A stretch of DNA of 64,000 bases from Candidatus Woesearchaeota archaeon (GTDB lineage: Archaea; Nanobdellota; Nanobdellia; Woesearchaeales; SKIA01): positions 79,381-143,380 of the forward strand of contig JBLKOP010000002.1 of NCBI GenBank assembly GCA_047602905.1, read 5' to 3'. Below, piece by piece: positions 7,091 through 18,325 of this stretch; within the stretch, counting starts at the first letter, position 1, and each line of letters begins with the position of its first letter. A program made the position numbers and the translations under genes. The notes under the pieces were generated by a model. That model was not told the origin of the DNA. It saw only the letters and a program-made list of their open reading frames with translations, and did not search any database.

Positions 7091-7312
7091 TATTTTGCTT
7101 TTCTCGCAGCAGCTTATTGATACGAACAAACGTTTCCAAAAAACAACTCGTGCAAGATAGTGCTAGGAGATTCTTAGGAAGTAACTTCTTTTTCATTGGT
7201 TTTTTTGTACTTCATGTGCAATAACGTCTCTGTACTCAACAAGTTGTGGTTGTAATCCATGAGCGGCTCCTGGTTTTTCAAACAATACGATATTCATCTG
7301 TTTCTCTTGTAG

Positions 7313-7597
7313 TTGTATTGTTTTTATTACCTGCTATCCTCTCTTATTTGGCTGTGCTTGTTATGCGCAAATAAGAACAATACTTACTTTACTCTGAAAG
7401 ACACAAACATCACGCACGTAGTCAAACAAAACAGTGCGTGGGACGTAGAACTAGAAGTCCTCGCCCACACCTACCAGGAATACCAAGAAACAATAAATAA
7501 CCTCACACAAGAATTCTCAGAAACAATAACAAGAATAGAAACAGCAATAATGACAGCAGACCGCGTCTGGCCAGCAGGAGCAAACTTCTTAAAGTAA
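7313..7597 (+). CDS. Doubtful small ORF: hydrophobic N-terminus followed by ET(I/A)-type repeats
   Basis: ORF only. The 3-prime half overlaps three copies of the DNA motif AGAAACA(G)(C)AATAA, so it may be regulatory DNA rather than coding. Confidence 0.25.
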   Translation: MYCFYYLLSSLIWLCLLCANKNNTYFTLKDTNITHVVKQNSAWDVELEVLAHTYQEYQETINNLTQEFSETITRIETAIMTADRVWPAGANFLK

Positions 7598-7655
7598 TCA
7601 CTTATAAGTAGTTAAAAAAGATACTTATTTAAATACCTATTTATTCAACAAGTAT

Positions 7656-8567
7656 ATGAATCTTAAATCTAGGCATTTCTTATATGCTACGCAAGAAGAT
7701 ATAGATAATCCTTTGGAACTTTCAAAGAACCCCAATAATATTAAAGTTGTAAATCTCGGGGATTCGTTTTTTTATCCTCCAAAACATCTTCAAGAAGGTC
7801 TTGAATCTGTTTTAGTATTCTCAGAAAACACTAAAAAAAGAGACATTCCAAGCGGAAGTGTGTGGAGGTATAGTGATGCTGATTATAAACCGGAAATTTT
7901 ACGAGATGACGTCGGTTGTGGCATTACTCTTTACCTGATGCAAAAGGGAGTAACTCCAGAAGATGTATTAAAAGTAGGTTCTCAATACTCTTTTGGAGGA
8001 GGAAACCATTTTCTAAATAAAGGTTCTTTTGATGAAAAACTGGACTATTTAATGTTACACTCTGATTTAAACTCTCAAAAAAAAATTCCTAAATCAACAT
8101 CTGAAGCTCAATCTCAAGTAAGTACTGCCACAAGTAAGCGTAGAGAACTTATTGAAAAAATGATTAATGAATTAGAAACTAGAGCTGACTTTTTTATGGA
8201 CTGGCCACATAATCATATTGATACTTCCGGTGAAAAAACAATATATATGAAAGGTGTTGTTGATACAAAAAAAACAGAAGGAATAGGATTACTTGCTTTA
8301 ACTCCCCATGATGGTTGCGCGTTATACGTGCAAGGTTCTGAGGTATTAAATGGGTATATGCAGCATGGGATTGGAGTAAAAAATCATGAATATCTTAAAG
8401 AGTACTCCTCTGTTAATAATTCTAAACACCGATATTACATCCCTAAAGACGACCCACTAGTAAGAGAAAGTTTTAACTCTATGCGTGCTTTTGGAAAAAA
8501 ATTTTATCCTCGAGCAACATTTGTTGAAAGGTATCTTTCTCCAGAAATAACAATAAGAAGTCGCTAA
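7656..8567 (+). CDS. Hypothetical protein with RtcB-like metal-site motif pattern (DVGCG ... GGGNHF ... H)
   Basis: DVGCGI at about aa 85-90, FGGGNHFL at about aa 113-120, and a His 16 residues later. This mimics the RtcB Cys/Asn-His/His spacing, but the protein is 303 aa against ~480 for RtcB. It lies in an AT-rich island. Confidence 0.5.
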   Translation: MNLKSRHFLYATQEDIDNPLELSKNPNNIKVVNLGDSFFYPPKHLQEGLESVLVFSENTKKRDIPSGSVWRYSDADYKPEILRDDVGCGITLYLMQKGVTPEDVLKVGSQYSFGGGNHFLNKGSFDEKLDYLMLHSDLNSQKKIPKSTSEAQSQVSTATSKRRELIEKMINELETRADFFMDWPHNHIDTSGEKTIYMKGVVDTKKTEGIGLLALTPHDGCALYVQGSEVLNGYMQHGIGVKNHEYLKEYSSVNNSKHRYYIPKDDPLVRESFNSMRAFGKKFYPRATFVERYLSPEITIRSR

Positions 8568-9487
8568 GAAGCAACTTTATACTTATTAACCCATTTTTCG
8601 AAATCCTCTGTTTTCTCCTCAGGAACAAGATGTATATTGTAATAATCATTTTCTTTATGTGGTTTCTTCTCAAACTGATAATTGACATGAGGTATTTCCA
8701 AATCATCTGTATGGAGTAATAAGGTATTTATTCCTCGTTTAAACAATAATTCTTTATCAACTCCTAAAACTACTAATGGTATATCTTCCTGTAATTCTTT
8801 TAGAGAAAAGTCAAGAGAATAACAATAATCTCCACTTCCATTACCATACCGATCTAACTTAACAAACTTTTTTGTTTTAGATACTCTCTGCATAATATCA
8901 TCTACTTTTTTGTGTATCTTAGAGACTAATTTTTTTCTACTATTAATAAATTCAATCAACTTAATGACTTCTTCATCAAGTGCAAAAAGTATTGATTTAA
9001 TAGTATTTGAATGTTCTTCTAAAAAATACTTGACTTCTTTATTATTGGCGTTTCCATTCCAATTGTTTACTAGTTCGTGCAGCTCTTCAAAAAGACTTTT
9101 TTTATTAATACTAATTTGATTAATATCTTCAAGAAGTTCTACAAGAAGCGCTCTTTCAATATGTAATGTATCATTATCATAAAATACTGTTGCTGCTTCA
9201 TTAACTACTTCCAATAAATCAAATATCCCATACACGCGGTGGTATTCAACACCTTTACCGCCTTCTCTAGATTCATTGTGATACTTGTCTATTTGTTTAA
9301 GCACGTATCTAAACTGTCGTATATTGGGATTTTCTAGTAATTCCTCTACGCCAGCAATAAAGAGTTCTTCTATGTTCTTTATCTCAGACAATTCTTTTAG
9401 AAGTAATTGCTTTTCTTTTTCTAAAGTTATATTAAATTTGTTGGTAAATGGTTTTTTTGTATGTAATAATTTAAAAAATGCTTTCAT
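8564..9487 (-). CDS. Hypothetical protein, 307 aa, acidic and Lys-rich
   Basis: Long ORF convergent with the previous gene, with 4-nt overlap of stops. No family recognised. AT-rich. Confidence 0.5.
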   Translation of the reverse strand: MKAFFKLLHTKKPFTNKFNITLEKEKQLLLKELSEIKNIEELFIAGVEELLENPNIRQFRYVLKQIDKYHNESREGGKGVEYHRVYGIFDLLEVVNEAATVFYDNDTLHIERALLVELLEDINQISINKKSLFEELHELVNNWNGNANNKEVKYFLEEHSNTIKSILFALDEEVIKLIEFINSRKKLVSKIHKKVDDIMQRVSKTKKFVKLDRYGNGSGDYCYSLDFSLKELQEDIPLVVLGVDKELLFKRGINTLLLHTDDLEIPHVNYQFEKKPHKENDYYNIHLVPEEKTEDFEKWVNKYKVAS

Positions 9488-9727
9488 ATAATATCATCTG
9501 CAGTAATACTGGCAATTTTTCTTATAAGTTTTTCTAATTTTTTTCTTGATAGAATCTTACTTTTTGTTTTATTTAAAAAATATTTTGCAGAGGTTTTATC
9601 TTCTAAACAGTTTACTTTAGGTTGTATGCTTCTTGTAGCGTTGTTGTTCCTGCGTAGATTTGTTCTCGTACGCTTCTCATTTCTGAATCAACTTTTCTTT
9701 ATGAGTTGTTCTTTTATTTTTGTTTGT

Positions 9728-10474
9728 TTATATATTTGTTGGGTTGTTGTTTAGGTATTGTTCTGCTAGTTTATTTGTGTATTTGGTTAGTTCTTTGTTG
9801 ATTTTGTGTAGTTGTTTTCTTGTTGGTAGCGTTTGTCGTATCCTCCAGGCTTCGTGTATTGGGTGTTTTGTTTGTTCTCGGAGTTCTTTTACGAGTTTGT
9901 TTCTTTCAAGAATGTAGGGTTTGTTTTGTAGTTGTAGTTCTACTCGTGCTAGCTCGAAGACTATTTTGTGAAAGTCTTTTAGTGGGTAGGGCTCGTTTTG
10001 TTCTTGTAATTGTTTACTCATCTCTTTACTTACTTCTATGAGGTGTTGTAGTTCTTGTTTTAGCGGCATTGCTTGCGGGTACGTACTAAAATTTATTTGT
10101 TGCTTGCTAAGTAGTTTGAAGTGTTTTAGTCGTTGTACGAAGCGCTCTGGCTTAATGAATTGTAGTATTGGCTCTATTGGTTCTTGCTGTTTCCTAAGAC
10201 TTTTCTCTGTAAATATTCGTAGCCTACTCTCTATTGCTATATTGTTTTTTTCTAAGTACTCTTCTAGTTGTTTGTTAATTGTTTCTTCTTGTTTGTACGT
10301 CTCATTGCTGCGTACAATTGCAAAGAAGTCTATGTCGCTAAACTCATTTCTTTCTTTGTTATCAAGTATTGTTCCTCCAAGGTATAAAGCGACGAGTTCT
10401 TCTTTAATGAGTTGTTGTAAAATGAGTTGTTTACAAGCAGTTATTGTTGTTTGTATTTGTTGTTCTGAGAGCAT
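9728..10474 (-). CDS. Pol-beta-type nucleotidyltransferase, AadA/ANT(3'')-like (NTase plus helical C-terminal domain)
   Basis: LYLGGTILDNKERNEFSDIDFFAIV matches the GS...D-x-D NTase motif in AadA-like order. The ~250-aa size and helical C-terminus match the ANT(3'')/DUF4111 architecture. Confidence 0.5.
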   Translation of the reverse strand: MLSEQQIQTTITACKQLILQQLIKEELVALYLGGTILDNKERNEFSDIDFFAIVRSNETYKQEETINKQLEEYLEKNNIAIESRLRIFTEKSLRKQQEPIEPILQFIKPERFVQRLKHFKLLSKQQINFSTYPQAMPLKQELQHLIEVSKEMSKQLQEQNEPYPLKDFHKIVFELARVELQLQNKPYILERNKLVKELREQTKHPIHEAWRIRQTLPTRKQLHKINKELTKYTNKLAEQYLNNNPTNI

Positions 10475-10578
10475 CTCTTTTGTTGTTCTCTTCTTGTTAT
10501 TTAATGATTTCTTACGTAATTGTTCTAATCAGCTTTTTTTGGTTGTTTTTTTATAGGTGTTCGTTTCTTTGTTGTGTT

Positions 10579-13559: not shown

Positions 13560-14183
13560 GTGATGAAGCTGTACTTATCCTCTTACAAAATAGGTAATGA
13601 AACAAAAAAATTACAAGAACTAGCTGGAAAAAAGAAAATAGGATACATCTCAAATGCTTTAGACTTCTCAGGAGTTGATCTTACTAAAAGAAAACAGCAC
13701 ATCCAAAAAGATATTTCTGCACTAACAGAACTCTCCTTAGCTGTTGAAGAACTTGACCTTAGAGACTACTTCGGAAACAAACAAGCGTTACTTACAAAAA
13801 TACACGAACTAGGAGGTGTTTTTATTAGCGGAGGAAACGTTTTTGTCCTACGACAAGCAATAAAGCTAAGTTTTTTAGACGAAATACTTCTGCAGCTACA
13901 CAACAACAAAGAATTTCTTTACGCAGGATATAGCGCAGCAGGATGCGTTCTATACACAAACCTCAAACCATACCAGATAGTAGATGACGCAACACAAACA
14001 CCCTACAAAGAACAAAAAGAAGTAATTTGGCAGGGTCTTGGAATACTTCCGTATGCTTTGTTACCTCATTACAAATCAGACCACCCAGAATCAGAAGACA
14101 TTGATAAAGAAGTACTGTTTTGCAAGCAAAACAACATCCCGTTTAAAACACTACAAGATGGAGAAGTACTTATAATTGAATAA
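13560..14183 (+). CDS. Peptidase S51 family (dipeptidase E / cyanophycinase-like)
   Basis: ISGGNVFVL and nucleophile context AGYSAAGCV, in a ~200-aa fold. Confidence 0.65.
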   Translation: MMKLYLSSYKIGNETKKLQELAGKKKIGYISNALDFSGVDLTKRKQHIQKDISALTELSLAVEELDLRDYFGNKQALLTKIHELGGVFISGGNVFVLRQAIKLSFLDEILLQLHNNKEFLYAGYSAAGCVLYTNLKPYQIVDDATQTPYKEQKEVIWQGLGILPYALLPHYKSDHPESEDIDKEVLFCKQNNIPFKTLQDGEVLIIE

Positions 14184-14230
14184 TACTTTTTTTAGTCTAC
14201 AAAGACTTTTTATATGTTAGATTATACGAG

Positions 14231-14713
14231 GTGTTTGTGAATATACGCGTAGCAAATAAAAATGACTTAGATAAGCTAACAAACATATTTATTGATTTTA
14301 AAGAAGAACTAACTGCGTATGAGCCTGAAGACATAAAAGTGTTTAGAAGAAATAAAAAGCCGTTTTCTTTAATTAAACAAGCAGTAAGTAAAAAAATAAC
14401 TGATACAAAAGGAATGTTTTTACTTGCAGAAGAAGGTAATCAAGTAATTGGTTTTGGGTTTGCTACACTAAAAGAAAACGATCACGTTGTTTTCAAAACA
14501 GTTAGGTACGGGTTTATTAATAATATGTGGGTGCATAAATCCTACAGAGGAGAAGGTATTGCTTCAAAGATAAAAAATGAATTATTTTCTTGGTTTAAAA
14601 AAAATAATTGTGGTTACGTTGAGCTTTCTGTTCTTGATACAAACCCTGCAAAAAAGATGTATGAGAAGTGGGGTTTTGAGGTAACACTTACTTCAATGAA
14701 AAAAGTTCTCTAG
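14231..14713 (+). CDS. GNAT family N-acetyltransferase (GTG start)
   Basis: Acetyl-CoA binding motif RGEGIASKIKNELFSWFKKN and a C-terminal YEKWGFE. Confidence 0.7.
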   Translation: MFVNIRVANKNDLDKLTNIFIDFKEELTAYEPEDIKVFRRNKKPFSLIKQAVSKKITDTKGMFLLAEEGNQVIGFGFATLKENDHVVFKTVRYGFINNMWVHKSYRGEGIASKIKNELFSWFKKNNCGYVELSVLDTNPAKKMYEKWGFEVTLTSMKKVL

Positions 14714-14720
14714 GCGTTGT

Positions 14721-15140
14721 TTACTTATCTATTGGATACCAATAAAAGATGTGTTTCTCGTCAAACGCGAAGTATTCTCTTACGCTTCCTACTTCTTCAA
14801 AACCGTTTTTTTCATAGAACTTACGAGCCCAGGTTGTTTGGCTTCCTGTGTTCACGCTTATTCCTCGCACACCAAGTTCTTGGGCGTGTTCTTTTATTTT
14901 GTTCATGAGTTGTGTTCCTATCCCTTCTCGGCGATACTTTTCTCGTGCGAGTATCCAATTGATGATGAGTCGATCACCACTTTTTTCTAGTATTGTCCAT
15001 CCAGCAAGCTCTTTTTCCTTAAAGCACAAGTACTTTGTGTAGTGGTCGCTTGTGAAGTACTTTATTCCTTCGTCGATTCCTTCTTGTGCGAGGCTTTCGC
15101 GCACTAACTCTAAGTCTTCTGGTTGGTATTTTTTTATCAT
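14721..15140 (-). CDS. GNAT family N-acetyltransferase
   Basis: RREGIGTQLMNKIKEHAQELGV and YEKNGFEEVG motifs A/B. Confidence 0.7.
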   Translation of the reverse strand: MIKKYQPEDLELVRESLAQEGIDEGIKYFTSDHYTKYLCFKEKELAGWTILEKSGDRLIINWILAREKYRREGIGTQLMNKIKEHAQELGVRGISVNTGSQTTWARKFYEKNGFEEVGSVREYFAFDEKHIFYWYPIDK

Positions 15141-15244
15141 GAAACGTTTTTTAGTGAGTTTTTCTGCTGCTTGATTTATTATTGTATCTATAAAAATAAT
15201 TATTTATTGTTATCTTTAAATACTTCACTTTCTATTTTGATATA

Positions 15245-15724
15245 ATGAGCGTAGAATTATTTCATAAAAAGTACTCAGAAGACATATGTGCTTTGTTAAA
15301 GGAATTCTTGGAGTATACTAGAGAAGCATATAGTGTGCAAGTTCTTGAATTTGATAACTATATTGATTCAAAACAAGATACGTATGCTCAAGAACTATTA
15401 AGTTCTTTTGTTGAACTAAAAAAATCAAGATTCTTAATTGCACATCATAATTCAGAAGTAGTTGGATACATTGTTGGTTCTATTGAGAAGAAGCCAAATA
15501 AGGTTATGAAAAAATCTGGTTATATCCATAGTTTTTTTGTTACAAAAAAGTACAGGGGTGCAGGTTTAGGTAAACAGTTATATGATTCGTTAGTTGATTG
15601 GTTTAAGAAACAACGTTGTGATCATCTCGAATTAAGTGTTTTTGATGGTAATCAAAAAACTATTTCTACCTATAAAAAATGGGGTTTTAAAGAGAATGCA
15701 ATAAAAATGAAAAAGAAACTTTAA
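15245..15724 (+). CDS. GNAT family N-acetyltransferase (paralogue of 14231..14713)
   Basis: RGAGLGKQLYDSLVDWFKKQ and YKKWGFKE, the same architecture as the first GNAT. Confidence 0.7.
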   Translation: MSVELFHKKYSEDICALLKEFLEYTREAYSVQVLEFDNYIDSKQDTYAQELLSSFVELKKSRFLIAHHNSEVVGYIVGSIEKKPNKVMKKSGYIHSFFVTKKYRGAGLGKQLYDSLVDWFKKQRCDHLELSVFDGNQKTISTYKKWGFKENAIKMKKKL

Positions 15725-15922
15725 GCCTAAAAAAGTGATTTTTTCTTAGTAGTTTTTAACAGTAATTTCTTTTACAAAACACTACTCTTTGCAAACACAT
15801 ATTTTGTTTTATTGTAAGCTATAAAAATTATCTAATACGATTTTTGTTGGCGTTGCTCCTTGCAGTATGGTGTTGATGTATGGCGTTATTGCTTGTGGCT
15901 TTAATATTGATTTTTTTGCGTC

Positions 15923-16165
15923 TTATTCTTGTTCTGTTTGTTTTGGTAGCCGTCTAAGCATTCTTGTGTCTATTGGTCCGAGTTGTACATCACACATGTG
16001 TATGTTCTTTGTGCTTTTGCTGTTGTGCGATTTGGTAAGGTTGTGTAGTGCTGCAAACACCATACTCATATACGGAGCTGCTGGTAGCCCATTGTCTACG
16101 CTTTGCCCTGATAACGTAAGTATTTTACCACCATCATTAAGTTTGTTCTTAAGTGCTTGTGTTGT
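15923..16165 (-). pseudogene. Remnant of a short-chain dehydrogenase/reductase (C-terminal ~85 codons, no start, catalytic Lys lost)
   Basis: Minus-strand translation ...NDGGKILTLSGQSVDNGLPAAPYMSMVFAALHNLTKS...NIHMCDVQLGPIDTRM matches the SDR GG-I-N-SS / YxxxK / PGxIDT block order. The YxxxK Lys is replaced and no upstream N-terminal half exists. Coordinates are approximate by about 20 nt. Confidence 0.4.
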
Positions 16166-16192
16166 TGCGTATGTGGTTGTTATTAAAACATA

Positions 16193-17092
16193 TTATTGTA
16201 TGAAGTACTCGTTTACTAGTTTTTGTAGGTTGTGTATTACTTCTTTTTCATTAATATCTAGTTGTTTTTGTTTCACGAGTCCTTCTAATAAGTTGCTTTC
16301 CGGAAGAACAAGCAAATTATTTGCAGGTAATTCTTGATGGTATTGGTTGTGTCTGTCTATAAGTACATATCCTTCTGGTTGTTGTTCTCGGTGTTCTTCG
16401 CTAGTGGTTTCTATGGGGGTGAATCTTTCTGTTCTTTCAATAAGGTTTTTGAAGTGTTTTGAAGCAATGATGTCGTTTATTCTTCTTGCTGCAGGAGTGA
16501 TTTCTGAGTAGTAAATGTCTTCAGTTACGCTTCTTAGTTCGCCGTTGTATTGCTCTTGCATGATGTTTTCTAACTTATTTTTTTCTTCTAGTTCGCGTTC
16601 AGAAAGATATGTGTCTGCAAGACTGTTTAGGGAGCCCATGTGGTCTGCTAATTGTTCTTGTACGATATATATTGGTTCTTGTGGTTTTCTTACTTGAAGC
16701 TGATTGAATATATCTGTGTAGAACTGATCTGATTCTTCTTGTATGTCAAAGCGTATTTCTCTCTCTTGCTTATTGTCTGAGGTTAATGCAATGGTGTATG
16801 CTGTTGTTATTATTGAGTCAAGTTCTTCTAATGGTATGTCTCCTTTTGGTTGTCGTTTTATGTCTACTCCATTAATCCATGGTTTGGTTGTGTTGTCTGT
16901 TATGAGTATCTGGTTTTCTAGTTTGCTTCTGTTTTCTTCATACCACTTCGCGATTTCTTCTTTTCCTGTTTCTTTTTTGAATGCGTGTATACTTACAGGG
17001 AGATTGTTTTTTGTAAATTCGTTTTGTATTTCTGGTACGAATCGTTCTAGTAGTTCGTTTGTTCGGTAGATTATGTTGATGTTTTGTTTCAT
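16193..17092 (-). CDS. Hypothetical protein, 299 aa, acidic
   Basis: ORF taken from the internal Met MKQNINIIY, giving an ATGA overlap with the upstream small ORF. No family recognised. Confidence 0.45.
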   Translation of the reverse strand: MKQNINIIYRTNELLERFVPEIQNEFTKNNLPVSIHAFKKETGKEEIAKWYEENRSKLENQILITDNTTKPWINGVDIKRQPKGDIPLEELDSIITTAYTIALTSDNKQEREIRFDIQEESDQFYTDIFNQLQVRKPQEPIYIVQEQLADHMGSLNSLADTYLSERELEEKNKLENIMQEQYNGELRSVTEDIYYSEITPAARRINDIIASKHFKNLIERTERFTPIETTSEEHREQQPEGYVLIDRHNQYHQELPANNLLVLPESNLLEGLVKQKQLDINEKEVIHNLQKLVNEYFIQ

Positions 17093-17286
17093 GTTCTTGT
17101 GTGGTATGTGCTTGTATTTCCTGTTGGTCTTTCTCCTACCCAAGTTATTTTTGGTGGTTGTGTTGGGAATTGACTCATGTATGTTTGTATGTTTGTGTCT
17201 AGTAGGGGGTTTAGTTGGTATTCTTCTTTGATGTCTTTTAGTGCTGTTTGTTTTGCTTGGATAACCAAGGGAGTGTATTTTTTCAT
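17089..17286 (-). CDS. Small hypothetical protein, 65 aa, translationally coupled to the 299-aa ORF
   Basis: Starts right after an AT-rich promoter region. Its stop overlaps the next ATG (ATGA). Confidence 0.35.
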   Translation of the reverse strand: MKKYTPLVIQAKQTALKDIKEEYQLNPLLDTNIQTYMSQFPTQPPKITWVGERPTGNTSTYHTRT

Positions 17287-17374
17287 AACTAATAAGTAGT
17301 TACTAAAATATATAAATCTTTCTCTTAAAAAAATAGAATAATATATAAAATATAATTATTATATCATAAATAAT

Positions 17375-18325
17375 ATGAAATTAGACAAATATTATCGTAA
17401 TATCTTGTTTTCGTTAACAAAAAACGCTCGCATACCTCTTAACGAACTTGCTAAACTAATCAATTTATCTCCTTCAACAACTGCGTACAGAATACAACAA
17501 CTCCAAGAAAATAACCTATTAGAAAACACTTACGCAGTACTTGACCTTTACAAACTCGGCTTTGTAGGATACAGAGCTTACATAACCTTTCAAGCAACCA
17601 CTCCTGATCAAGAAGAAGAAATTCTTTCTTGGCTTCAAAAACAAAAACAAGCAGCTGTTCTGTTAAAAACAACAGGAGACGTTGATTGCGTCTGTATTAG
17701 CTGGACAAAAACAGACCTTGAATACTACTCGTTCGTACAAGAACTCAAAGAACACTACCAAACACACATTAAACACATAGAAATAACCTCTTACATCAAA
17801 GCACATCACTTACAAAGAAACTACTTACTAGACGAAGACGACCAAGAAATACTCACGATAGGAAACACCCGAGAAATAGTAGAACACGACCAACTAGACC
17901 TACAAATACTTCAGCTCCTCGCAACAAACGCTCGTATAAGCGCACTAGAAATAGCACAACAACTAACTATACACGCACAAACAGTAATTAACCGCATAAA
18001 ACGCTTAGAACAAACACAAGTAATAGCAGGATACAGCTGCAGTATTAATACACAACAACTACAGCGAATCTATGAAAAACTCAATTTTGTTTTCTCAAAG
18101 AACACAAACCACCAAGAACTCCTCAGCTACGCAGCAAGCATTCCTGAAAGCATCTACGTTGATGAAGCAACAAACCAATACGACTTAGAGCTAAACATAG
18201 AAGTCTCCTCAACAGCAAGAAAACACGAGATACTAAACGACATAAAAAACCGTTTCGGAGGAGTACATCACTTCAGTCAATTCTCAACAACAGGATTTAG
18301 AAAAATCGTTTATCTACCTGTATAA
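17375..18325 (+). CDS. Tandem Lrp/AsnC-family transcriptional regulator (two HTH plus RAM units in one chain)
   Basis: Two HTH_AsnC-like segments (ILFSLTKNARIPLNELAKLINLSPSTTAYRIQQLQENNLL and ILQLLATNARISALEIAQQLTIHAQTVINRIKRLEQTQVI), each followed by a RAM-like domain. Confidence 0.7.
   Translation: MKLDKYYRNILFSLTKNARIPLNELAKLINLSPSTTAYRIQQLQENNLLENTYAVLDLYKLGFVGYRAYITFQATTPDQEEEILSWLQKQKQAAVLLKTTGDVDCVCISWTKTDLEYYSFVQELKEHYQTHIKHIEITSYIKAHHLQRNYLLDEDDQEILTIGNTREIVEHDQLDLQILQLLATNARISALEIAQQLTIHAQTVINRIKRLEQTQVIAGYSCSINTQQLQRIYEKLNFVFSKNTNHQELLSYAASIPESIYVDEATNQYDLELNIEVSSTARKHEILNDIKNRFGGVHHFSQFSTTGFRKIVYLPV

Follow-up and report, generated by a model that had tools for sequence, protein, structure and literature searches.

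A predicted minimal RtcB-family protein and its convergent partner gene in DPANN archaea

We analysed 64,000 nucleotides of a metagenome-assembled genome (MAG) of Candidatus Woesearchaeota (the window) and focused on an AT-rich stretch next to the liv genes. The open reading frame (ORF) at 7656-8567 encodes a protein that, judged by sequence profiles and a predicted structure, is a very divergent, minimal member of the RtcB family. We call it mini-RtcB. Tail to tail with it lies the gene for a 307-aa protein, the partner. This convergent arrangement is present at 20 distinct loci of DPANN archaea with differing flanks, and the genomic coupling of the two genes looks obligate. Both genes are currently annotated as "hypothetical protein", and no curated model reaches its threshold on either of them. 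No description of a DPANN mini-RtcB or of its partner was found in the literature that we searched, which did not include the main comparative survey of RNA repair.

As a single sequence, the 303-aa mini-RtcB has no matches in Pfam, PADLOC or the sequences of the PDB. A preliminary description of this DNA had called its genes unrecognisable. This is correct for single-sequence searches, but profiles and structure do place the 303-aa protein in the RtcB family. When the translation is read by eye, the motifs DVGCGI, GGGNHF, LHSD, PHNH and QHGIG stand out. They resemble the active-site motifs of RtcB, and hence RtcB identity was tested.

A large protein collection contains about 20 homologues of about 300 aa from Woesearchaeota-type genomes and metagenomes. 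The closest homologue is 60% identical and is encoded on a 1.7-kb contig. Comparing the family alignment (A1, 20 members) with 13 canonical RtcBs by hhalign gives a probability of 99.05% (E 2.1e-18, 258 aligned columns). Similarly, a custom hidden Markov model (HMM) of canonical RtcBs matches the window protein with an E-value of 3.6e-11. An exhaustive profile search recovers the family proper as about 42 cluster representatives (E<=1e-30). Further out it picks up other short as well as canonical RtcBs, the canonical ones at E 1e-9 to 1e-12. Curated models respond weakly: nine of the 20 members of A1 match the Pfam RtcB model below its gathering score (best 26.7 vs 27 bits), and the NCBIfam RtcB models give the window protein 14-16 bits, below their cut-offs of 272-407.

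The structure predicted by AlphaFold2 (AF2) on the basis of A1 has a predicted local distance difference test score (pLDDT) of 88.4 and a predicted template-modelling score (pTM) of 0.88. A Foldseek search of the PDB with this model returns only human RTCB as significant (7p3b/8btt, E 1.3e-7, template-modelling (TM) score 0.46-0.48). Among viral models the only match is a phage 3'-phosphate/5'-hydroxy nucleic-acid ligase, again RtcB (E 4e-10, TM score 0.65). The modest TM scores are explained by the deletions in mini-RtcB.

The metal and His-GMP site is preserved. Invariant in A1 are D85, C88, G114, G116, N117, H118, F119, H135, D137, N139, R162, D182, H185, N186, K199, G200, H237 and G240. 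The catalytic residues are invariant not only in the 20 family members but also across 10 mini, short and canonical sequences. All five manganese ligands of the two-metal site are present (D85, C88, H118, H135 and H185). H237, G238 and G240, invariant or nearly so, align with the canonical HGAGR motif (HGxG). Table 1 lists the counterparts in P. horikoshii RtcB; the roles of these residues are taken from published work (PMC10630183, PMC8051266). The preliminary description had also proposed an RNA-repair cargo, a suggestion that fits this one gene.

Canonical RtcB (PF01139; the P. horikoshii and E. coli proteins and human RTCB) has the fold in common with mini-RtcB, and homology at the profile level. 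Invariant counterparts exist in mini-RtcB for the manganese ligands, the GMP-carrying histidine, Asn202, Arg296, Lys350-Gly351 and Glu432. In contrast, mini-RtcB has only 303 aa instead of 408-481 aa. About 80 aa are missing from the stretch that separates the Cys motif from the NHF motif, and another 40 or so past HSGSR; the N-terminal PDxHxG motif is replaced. Canonical RtcB contacts the 5'-OH strand through Asn202, Arg238, Arg190 and Gln194 (PMC8051266). In the DPANN family HSD[L/F]N stands at the position of Arg238, while Arg190 and Gln194 fall in a segment that is deleted from mini-RtcB. Unlike canonical RtcB, mini-RtcB adjoins a dedicated convergent partner gene.

In three genomes (L007, L010 and L013) a canonical RtcB of 466-468 aa is encoded 3-4 kb upstream of mini-RtcB (Table 1). 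Hence, mini-RtcB is an extra paralogue there and not the tRNA-splicing ligase. The block common to the three genomes consists of SLT, RtcB, an unknown gene, a sulfatase, the mini-RtcB/partner pair, FKBP, TrmB and glutamate dehydrogenase. Two RtcB paralogues so close together could be the trace of an old duplication.

Locus after locus, mini-RtcB is accompanied by a convergent gene for 260-330 aa, whose 3' end overlaps or abuts its own. The loci form two groups. Group 1 comprises the window, L006, L007, L008, L013, L014, L017, L019, L020, L023, L028, L058 and L060, as well as L010, where the partner is frameshifted. Group 2 (L025, L026, L027 and L029-L031) carries a more distant subgroup of mini-RtcB. 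An HMM built from six partners detects partners that it was not trained on in L017, L019, L020, L023 and L028, all of them convergent and adjacent. The layout is the same in group 2; its partners are more divergent and colinear with those of group 1 over their full length (hhalign 83%, E 9e-6). A scan seeded with the partner instead of mini-RtcB yields three loci, and in 3/3 mini-RtcB lies tail to tail with it. The partner is found only next to mini-RtcB.

The overlap itself is short. Twelve of the 17 tabulated loci have tails that overlap by 4 nt (TTAA, CTAA or TTAG), among them L006, L008, L017, L020, L023, L025, L026 and L029-L031. In the window the shared tetranucleotide is CTAA, exactly the 4-nt overlap of convergent ORFs that had been described for it. 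The tails overlap by 15 nt in L007 and L014 and, by coordinates, also in L028, L058 and L060; the overlap is 34 nt in L013.

The two proteins diverge together. Their pairwise distances correlate with a Mantel r of 0.87 (p 2e-4); in group 1 alone, r is 0.91. The partner is the faster-evolving of the two, with a mean identity of 21% compared to 34% for mini-RtcB. The flanks differ from locus to locus: gyrA, a sulfatase with FKBP, a PD-(D/E)XK protein with DUF87, or a phosphorylase with AsnC. No third gene of the module is conserved, as the neighbours vary between loci. A clade of three related genomes, those with the nearby canonical RtcB, keeps the pair in the same synteny block.

Long helices are predicted for the first 200 aa or so of the partner, and an alpha/beta fold for a C-terminal domain of about 100 aa. 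Its AF2 model is poor (pLDDT 43.5, from an 11-sequence alignment), and only secondary structure was taken from it. In this low-confidence model the C-terminal domain has the order beta-beta-alpha-alpha-beta-beta-beta-alpha. The only residues invariant in all 17 aligned partners are H267 and H286, with N269 coming close (alignments A2, A4 and A8).

In a single-sequence search the 307-aa protein matches only itself. Searches of Pfam, PADLOC, NCBIfam and the PDB with the single sequence, with the 17 members and with a profile of the C-terminal domain returned only coiled-coil noise. The partner is thus an orphan family without recognisable relatives and a candidate RtcB cofactor or RNase. Two more specific ideas gained no support from profiles. 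Archease, suggested by a resemblance of C-terminal motifs, was rejected: hhalign against the archeases of P. horikoshii, M. thermautotrophicus and human gives a probability of 0.1-0.3%, and there is no match to the Pfam archease model. Nor is there support for a partner that supplies the deleted RtcB segments in trans, with an hhalign probability of 0.1% against canonical RtcB.

The C-termini of the partners nearly all end in ...A, ...AA or ...AS (for example, HLLLAA, KVAS or LVA; alignments A4 and A8). The alanine ending persists where only the stop codons overlap, and hence it is not due to an antisense coding constraint. That it is a degradation signal is speculation.

Table 1. Features of the locus, P. 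horikoshii counterparts of mini-RtcB residues, and canonical RtcB genes near mini-RtcB in other genomes
Feature	Position	Strand	Remarks
AT-rich spacer	7091..7655	.	565 nt; from the liv substrate-binding-protein gene to the mini-RtcB gene
Doubtful ORF	7313-7597		TTG start; inside the 565-nt spacer
Mini-RtcB	7656..8567	+	303 aa; MFT4250050.1, ACMXYD_01680; annotated "hypothetical protein"
Shared stop CTAA	8564..8567	.	TAA for the + gene, TAG for the - gene
Partner	8564..9487	-	307 aa; ACMXYD_01685; orphan family
AT-rich spacer	9488..9727	.	240 nt upstream of the partner gene; TATA-like elements
Nucleotidyltransferase neighbour	9728..10474	-	248 aa; ACMXYD_01690; motif G33-G34 ... D47-I-D49
Mini-RtcB D85, C88	P. 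horikoshii Asp95, Cys98		metal ligands
Mini-RtcB N117	P. horikoshii Asn202		contacts 5'-OH
Mini-RtcB H118	P. horikoshii His203		metal ligand
Mini-RtcB H135	P. horikoshii His234		metal ligand
Mini-RtcB H185	P. horikoshii His329		metal ligand
Mini-RtcB H237	P. horikoshii His404		carries GMP
Canonical RtcB, L007	789-2192		
Canonical RtcB, L010	1285-2685		
Canonical RtcB, L013	1841-3241		

RtcB is essential for tRNA splicing in archaea and animals, and it is central to RNA repair. It is the only known family of ligases that join 3'-phosphate and 5'-OH ends. We think that the two-gene DPANN module is probably an accessory system for end sealing, RNA repair or RNA processing, which works beside the canonical tRNA-splicing RtcB. 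If RtcB enzymology applies, mini-RtcB would guanylylate itself on H237. The GMP would then be passed to a nucleic-acid end with a 3'-phosphate or a 2',3'-cyclic phosphate, and the activated end would be sealed to a 5'-OH end. The partner would provide what the stripped enzyme misses: binding or targeting of the substrate or the 5'-OH strand, or a cofactor-like activation. We prefer the partner as a binding or activating subunit over the partner as an antagonist RNase.

A natural RtcB of about 300 residues, which keeps the metal and GMP chemistry and has shed the strand-binding elements, would define a minimal catalytic core and reveal if strand binding can come in trans. DPANN genomes are reduced, and any accessory module that they retain is likely to matter. 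The AT-rich patch of orphan genes proved to be a conserved functional unit, neither junk nor an obvious mobile island.

Several observations weigh against an accessory sealing or repair system. No family member reaches the Pfam RtcB gathering score, and the window protein remains unmatched at E<=1. With Arg238, Arg190, Gln194 and the PDxH motif lost, ligation could be gone. Mini-RtcB occurs without a partner in three loci (L004, L012 and L022). In one further locus 5 inserted nucleotides shift the reading frame of the partner, and the independent assemblies L010 and L011 both show this same insertion. Hence, mini-RtcB is not strictly dependent on the partner. The partner itself does not detectably resemble archease, the missing RtcB segments or any Pfam or PDB entry. 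Its role is purely one that we infer, and its structure model is unreliable. Finally, a convergent orientation is unusual for the subunits of one complex.

Two of the partner-less loci have further peculiarities. In L004 (6001-11843) mini-RtcB is followed in the same direction by genes for a 171-aa orphan, a methyltransferase, a PolyA_pol/CCA-type nucleotidyltransferase and a PcfJ-domain protein, a different context that is possibly RNA-related. L022 belongs to a bin labelled Candidatus Neomarinimicrobiota bacterium, and several other DPANN-type mini-RtcBs come from bins labelled "uncultured Methanosarcinales". These labels probably reflect mis-binning or mislabelling of public MAGs.

Alternatively, the two genes could be a cut-and-seal pair similar to a toxin and its antidote, which we consider rather unlikely. 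The two-histidine domain of the partner would act as a metal-independent RNase and produce 2',3'-cyclic-phosphate and 5'-OH ends for mini-RtcB to rejoin. With a convergent layout, each of the two genes would have a promoter of its own, and antisense interference would become possible; the genes are indeed convergent and tail-overlapping, with separate AT-rich, promoter-like spacers upstream. That the only invariant residues of the partner are two histidines, plus the nearly invariant asparagine, would suit an RNase, but the partner has no similarity to RNase or toxin families in Pfam, PADLOC or the PDB. The order of secondary-structure elements in its C-terminal domain is presumably compatible with the folds of small RNase toxins; it comes from a low-confidence model, however, and an N-terminal helical region of 200 aa is atypical of such toxins. 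The faster evolution of the partner, and its decay (L010/L011) or absence in loci where mini-RtcB stays intact, also agree with a toxin. Yet mini-RtcB has lost the residues for holding the 5'-OH strand, an odd loss in an enzyme dedicated to resealing.

According to the preliminary description, positions 7100-10480 are an island of horizontally acquired accessory DNA, possibly with a defence or RNA-repair cargo. We consider a recent horizontal acquisition with defence or other accessory cargo very unlikely, although the composition of the region is unusual. Measured against the window as the only background, the GC content of this region is 0.327 compared to 0.409 for all 64 kb, with a minimum of 0.28 at 8500-9750. 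The described drop is therefore real. The region also remains a tetranucleotide outlier after GC normalisation (r 0.66 vs 0.82 +/- 0.05). The pair deviates most: its 1.8 kb have the lowest tetranucleotide correlation among windows of their size (r 0.34 vs 0.75 +/- 0.08), and GC at third codon positions (GC3) is 0.21 in both the 303-aa and the 307-aa ORF, the lowest value in the window (mean 0.35, sd 0.07).

The limits of the region are different from those described. Low GC does not end at the TSUP/TauE gene but runs from about 7.1 to about 18.3 kb, a tract of about 11 kb. Past the pair, the tract contains ordinary accessory genes (TauE, a TrmB regulator, an S51 peptidase, three GNAT acetyltransferases and an AsnC-type regulator) together with hypotheticals. 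Between 10444 and 18325 the order is TauE, a 236-aa orphan, the TrmB regulator, a 165-aa orphan, the S51 peptidase, the three GNAT genes in a row (14231-14713, 14721-15140 and 15245-15724), two orphans and the AsnC-type regulator, which is a double helix-turn-helix protein. The second-strongest tetranucleotide outlier, at 14001-17400 (r 0.64), also lies here.

Hallmarks of mobility are absent. A search for mobility genes at 7-18 kb found neither an integrase nor a transposase, and the tract has neither flanking direct repeats nor a tRNA next to it; the sole tRNA found is at 1512-1584. Viral contigs in IMG/VR contain no relatives of the family. A profile search of mini-RtcB and the partner against the 5027 defence models of PADLOC-DB 2.0 gave no match, which leaves a defence cargo unsupported for the pair.

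A horizontal origin would fit with a pair whose neighbourhood changes between genomes, with an adjoining nucleotidyltransferase that is a singleton and with a bacterial protein (P0036, see below) in which a mini-RtcB domain is fused to leucine-rich repeats. However, the two genes co-diverge and keep their synteny in three related genomes. Across 17 loci, the GC content of the pair tracks that of the host over a range of 0.21 to 0.50. In 15 of 17 hosts the partner gene is richer in AT than the DNA that flanks it, on average by 0.05, and hence part of the GC dip is intrinsic to the partner gene. The copy in the window is more AT-shifted than most (-0.07 and -0.125 vs flanks), and it is possible that this copy was acquired from a donor of lower GC. 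The arrangement is identical in 22 contigs from several samples. What had been said about horizontal acquisition thus stands for the shift in composition but not for the rest: the tract consists of accessory genes of low GC and is no demonstrable mobile island.

To a last alternative, a mini-RtcB repurposed as a nucleotidyl-transferase that caps 3'-phosphate ends (NppG) or modifies another substrate without sealing, we would give only a very slim chance: the metal and His-GMP machinery is intact with the counterparts of Arg238, Arg190 and Gln194 missing, and in E. coli RtcB the R189A change makes sealing 200-fold slower and RNAppG formation only 3-fold, with loss of the Arg238 equivalent also harming sealing far more than guanylylation (PMC8051266), but Asn202, without which strands are not joined, has an invariant counterpart in N117, and the partner or the invariant basic residues R162 and K199 could replace the missing arginines.

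An accessory sealing or repair system remains our preferred reading of the pair, and the rest of the AT-rich tract, including the nucleotidyltransferase gene, consists of neighbours unlinked to it. All three main ORFs lie where the preliminary description had placed them (Table 1), and public assemblies of the source organism call these genes as well. The locus tags of the region run from ACMXYD_01680 to _01700.

In the 565-nt spacer, a TATA-like element, ATTTAAATA, can be read by eye about 25-30 nt ahead of the ATG of mini-RtcB and is its putative promoter. The doubtful ORF in the same spacer had been described as repeat-containing. The doubt was justified, the repeats less so. The ORF contains a single imperfect pair of 22-nt repeats, its GC3 is atypically high (0.44), and public assemblies do not call it; no plus-strand gene is called anywhere in this spacer. 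It is probably non-coding and no gene. On the minus strand, a 34-codon ORF (MNIVLFEKPGAAHGLQPQLVEYRDVIAHEVQKNQ, 7193-7297) is called as a gene in one public assembly and may be the remnant of a decayed gene.

The spacer shows no sign of a structured RNA: there is no Rfam match, and folding z-scores are -1.3 for the plus and +0.7 for the minus strand. Rfam has no match elsewhere in the island either, including the spacer at 9488..9727. Tandem-repeat and repeat finders gave only weak two-copy repeats in the spacer and the island. The shared stop tetranucleotide sits in a weak hairpin (8558-8577). The TATA-like elements upstream of the partner gene suggest that it has its own promoter and is not co-transcribed with the nucleotidyltransferase gene.

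The 248-aa protein, a putative nucleotidyltransferase, lies outside the conserved pair and is a neighbour of it. It is a singleton cluster; a metagenome scan found no relatives, and no other mini-RtcB locus has a homologue. The GC3 of its gene (0.305) is unremarkable. Its translation contains a motif of the hG[GS]-x9-13-Dh[DE]h type, and it reaches 20.9-21.9 bits on the Pfam Polbeta model, below the cut-off of 26.9. Among the defence models it has only a weak match to the candidate family PDC-S09 (E 0.002, 16 bits).

The same protein had been called AadA/ANT-like, which overstates the resemblance. It has the N-terminal Pol-beta motif (G[GS]-x12-DxD) and the size (about 250 aa) in common with ANT(3'') and ANT(9). 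The similarity covers only residues 16-73, the N-terminal nucleotidyltransferase fold, with 21.4 bits for the NCBIfam model of ANT(3'')-II (cut-off 400) and 19.7 bits for ANT(9) (cut-off 340), and it does not extend to the C-terminus. Scores so far below the curated thresholds rule out AadA. A fused MNT-HEPN protein is ruled out as well, as the C-terminal half matches neither HEPN nor KNTase_C nor DUF4111 at E<=10. An R-x4-H string (REQTKH, residues about 205-212) looks HEPN-like by eye and has no support from HEPN profiles.

Bacterial "short RtcBs" (about 305-320 aa; for example, P0070, P0083, L040 and L054) have the same two deletions and the same catalytic residues as mini-RtcB. Unlike mini-RtcB, they retain HTGSR (the Arg238 equivalent), LPD and EHPxCYR, and they score about 108-111 bits, well over the Pfam threshold; they are annotated only as RtcB family. 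We looked for a conserved convergent partner of the bacterial short RtcBs and found none. Because both deletions are common to the two and the bacterial proteins keep the canonical motifs and the Pfam score, the DPANN mini-RtcB is probably a further-diverged offshoot of the short-RtcB clade.

Short RtcBs are widespread in bacterial MAGs (L033-L057), including Acidobacteriota, Planctomycetota, Verrucomicrobiota and others. In L039, L043 and L047 the short RtcB directly follows a full-length RtcB and precedes a conserved gene for about 470-505 aa. The two most distant archaeal short-RtcB loci (L032 5878-6675 and L034 3169-4011) are followed in the same direction by a gene whose product, another conserved protein (265-280 aa), is not related to the convergent partners. 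P0036, a metagenomic and probably bacterial protein of 952 aa, combines an N-terminal region, about 450 aa of leucine-rich repeats and a mini-RtcB-like domain (659-950) with all catalytic motifs. This fusion hints at a use of the domain that is coupled to a sensor or to target recognition.

Beyond a probable accessory role, we tentatively consider it possible that the pair is a self-contained, two-component end-processing system of DPANN archaea. It would combine the smallest known RtcB core with a new class of protein, either a subunit that replaces archease or an antagonist RNase, and the convergent 3' overlap would be part of its regulation. The RtcB family itself is known; new are a previously unannotated minimal and divergent RtcB and its new dedicated partner.

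An RtcB paralogue with a dedicated accessory factor is known from archease in archaea and eukaryotes and from RtcB2-PrfH in bacteria. The mini-RtcB pair differs from both in that its genes are convergent and not operonic, and in that the partner has no similarity to archease or to release factors. In common with them, it would join an RtcB paralogue to a co-evolving helper that activates or targets the enzyme.

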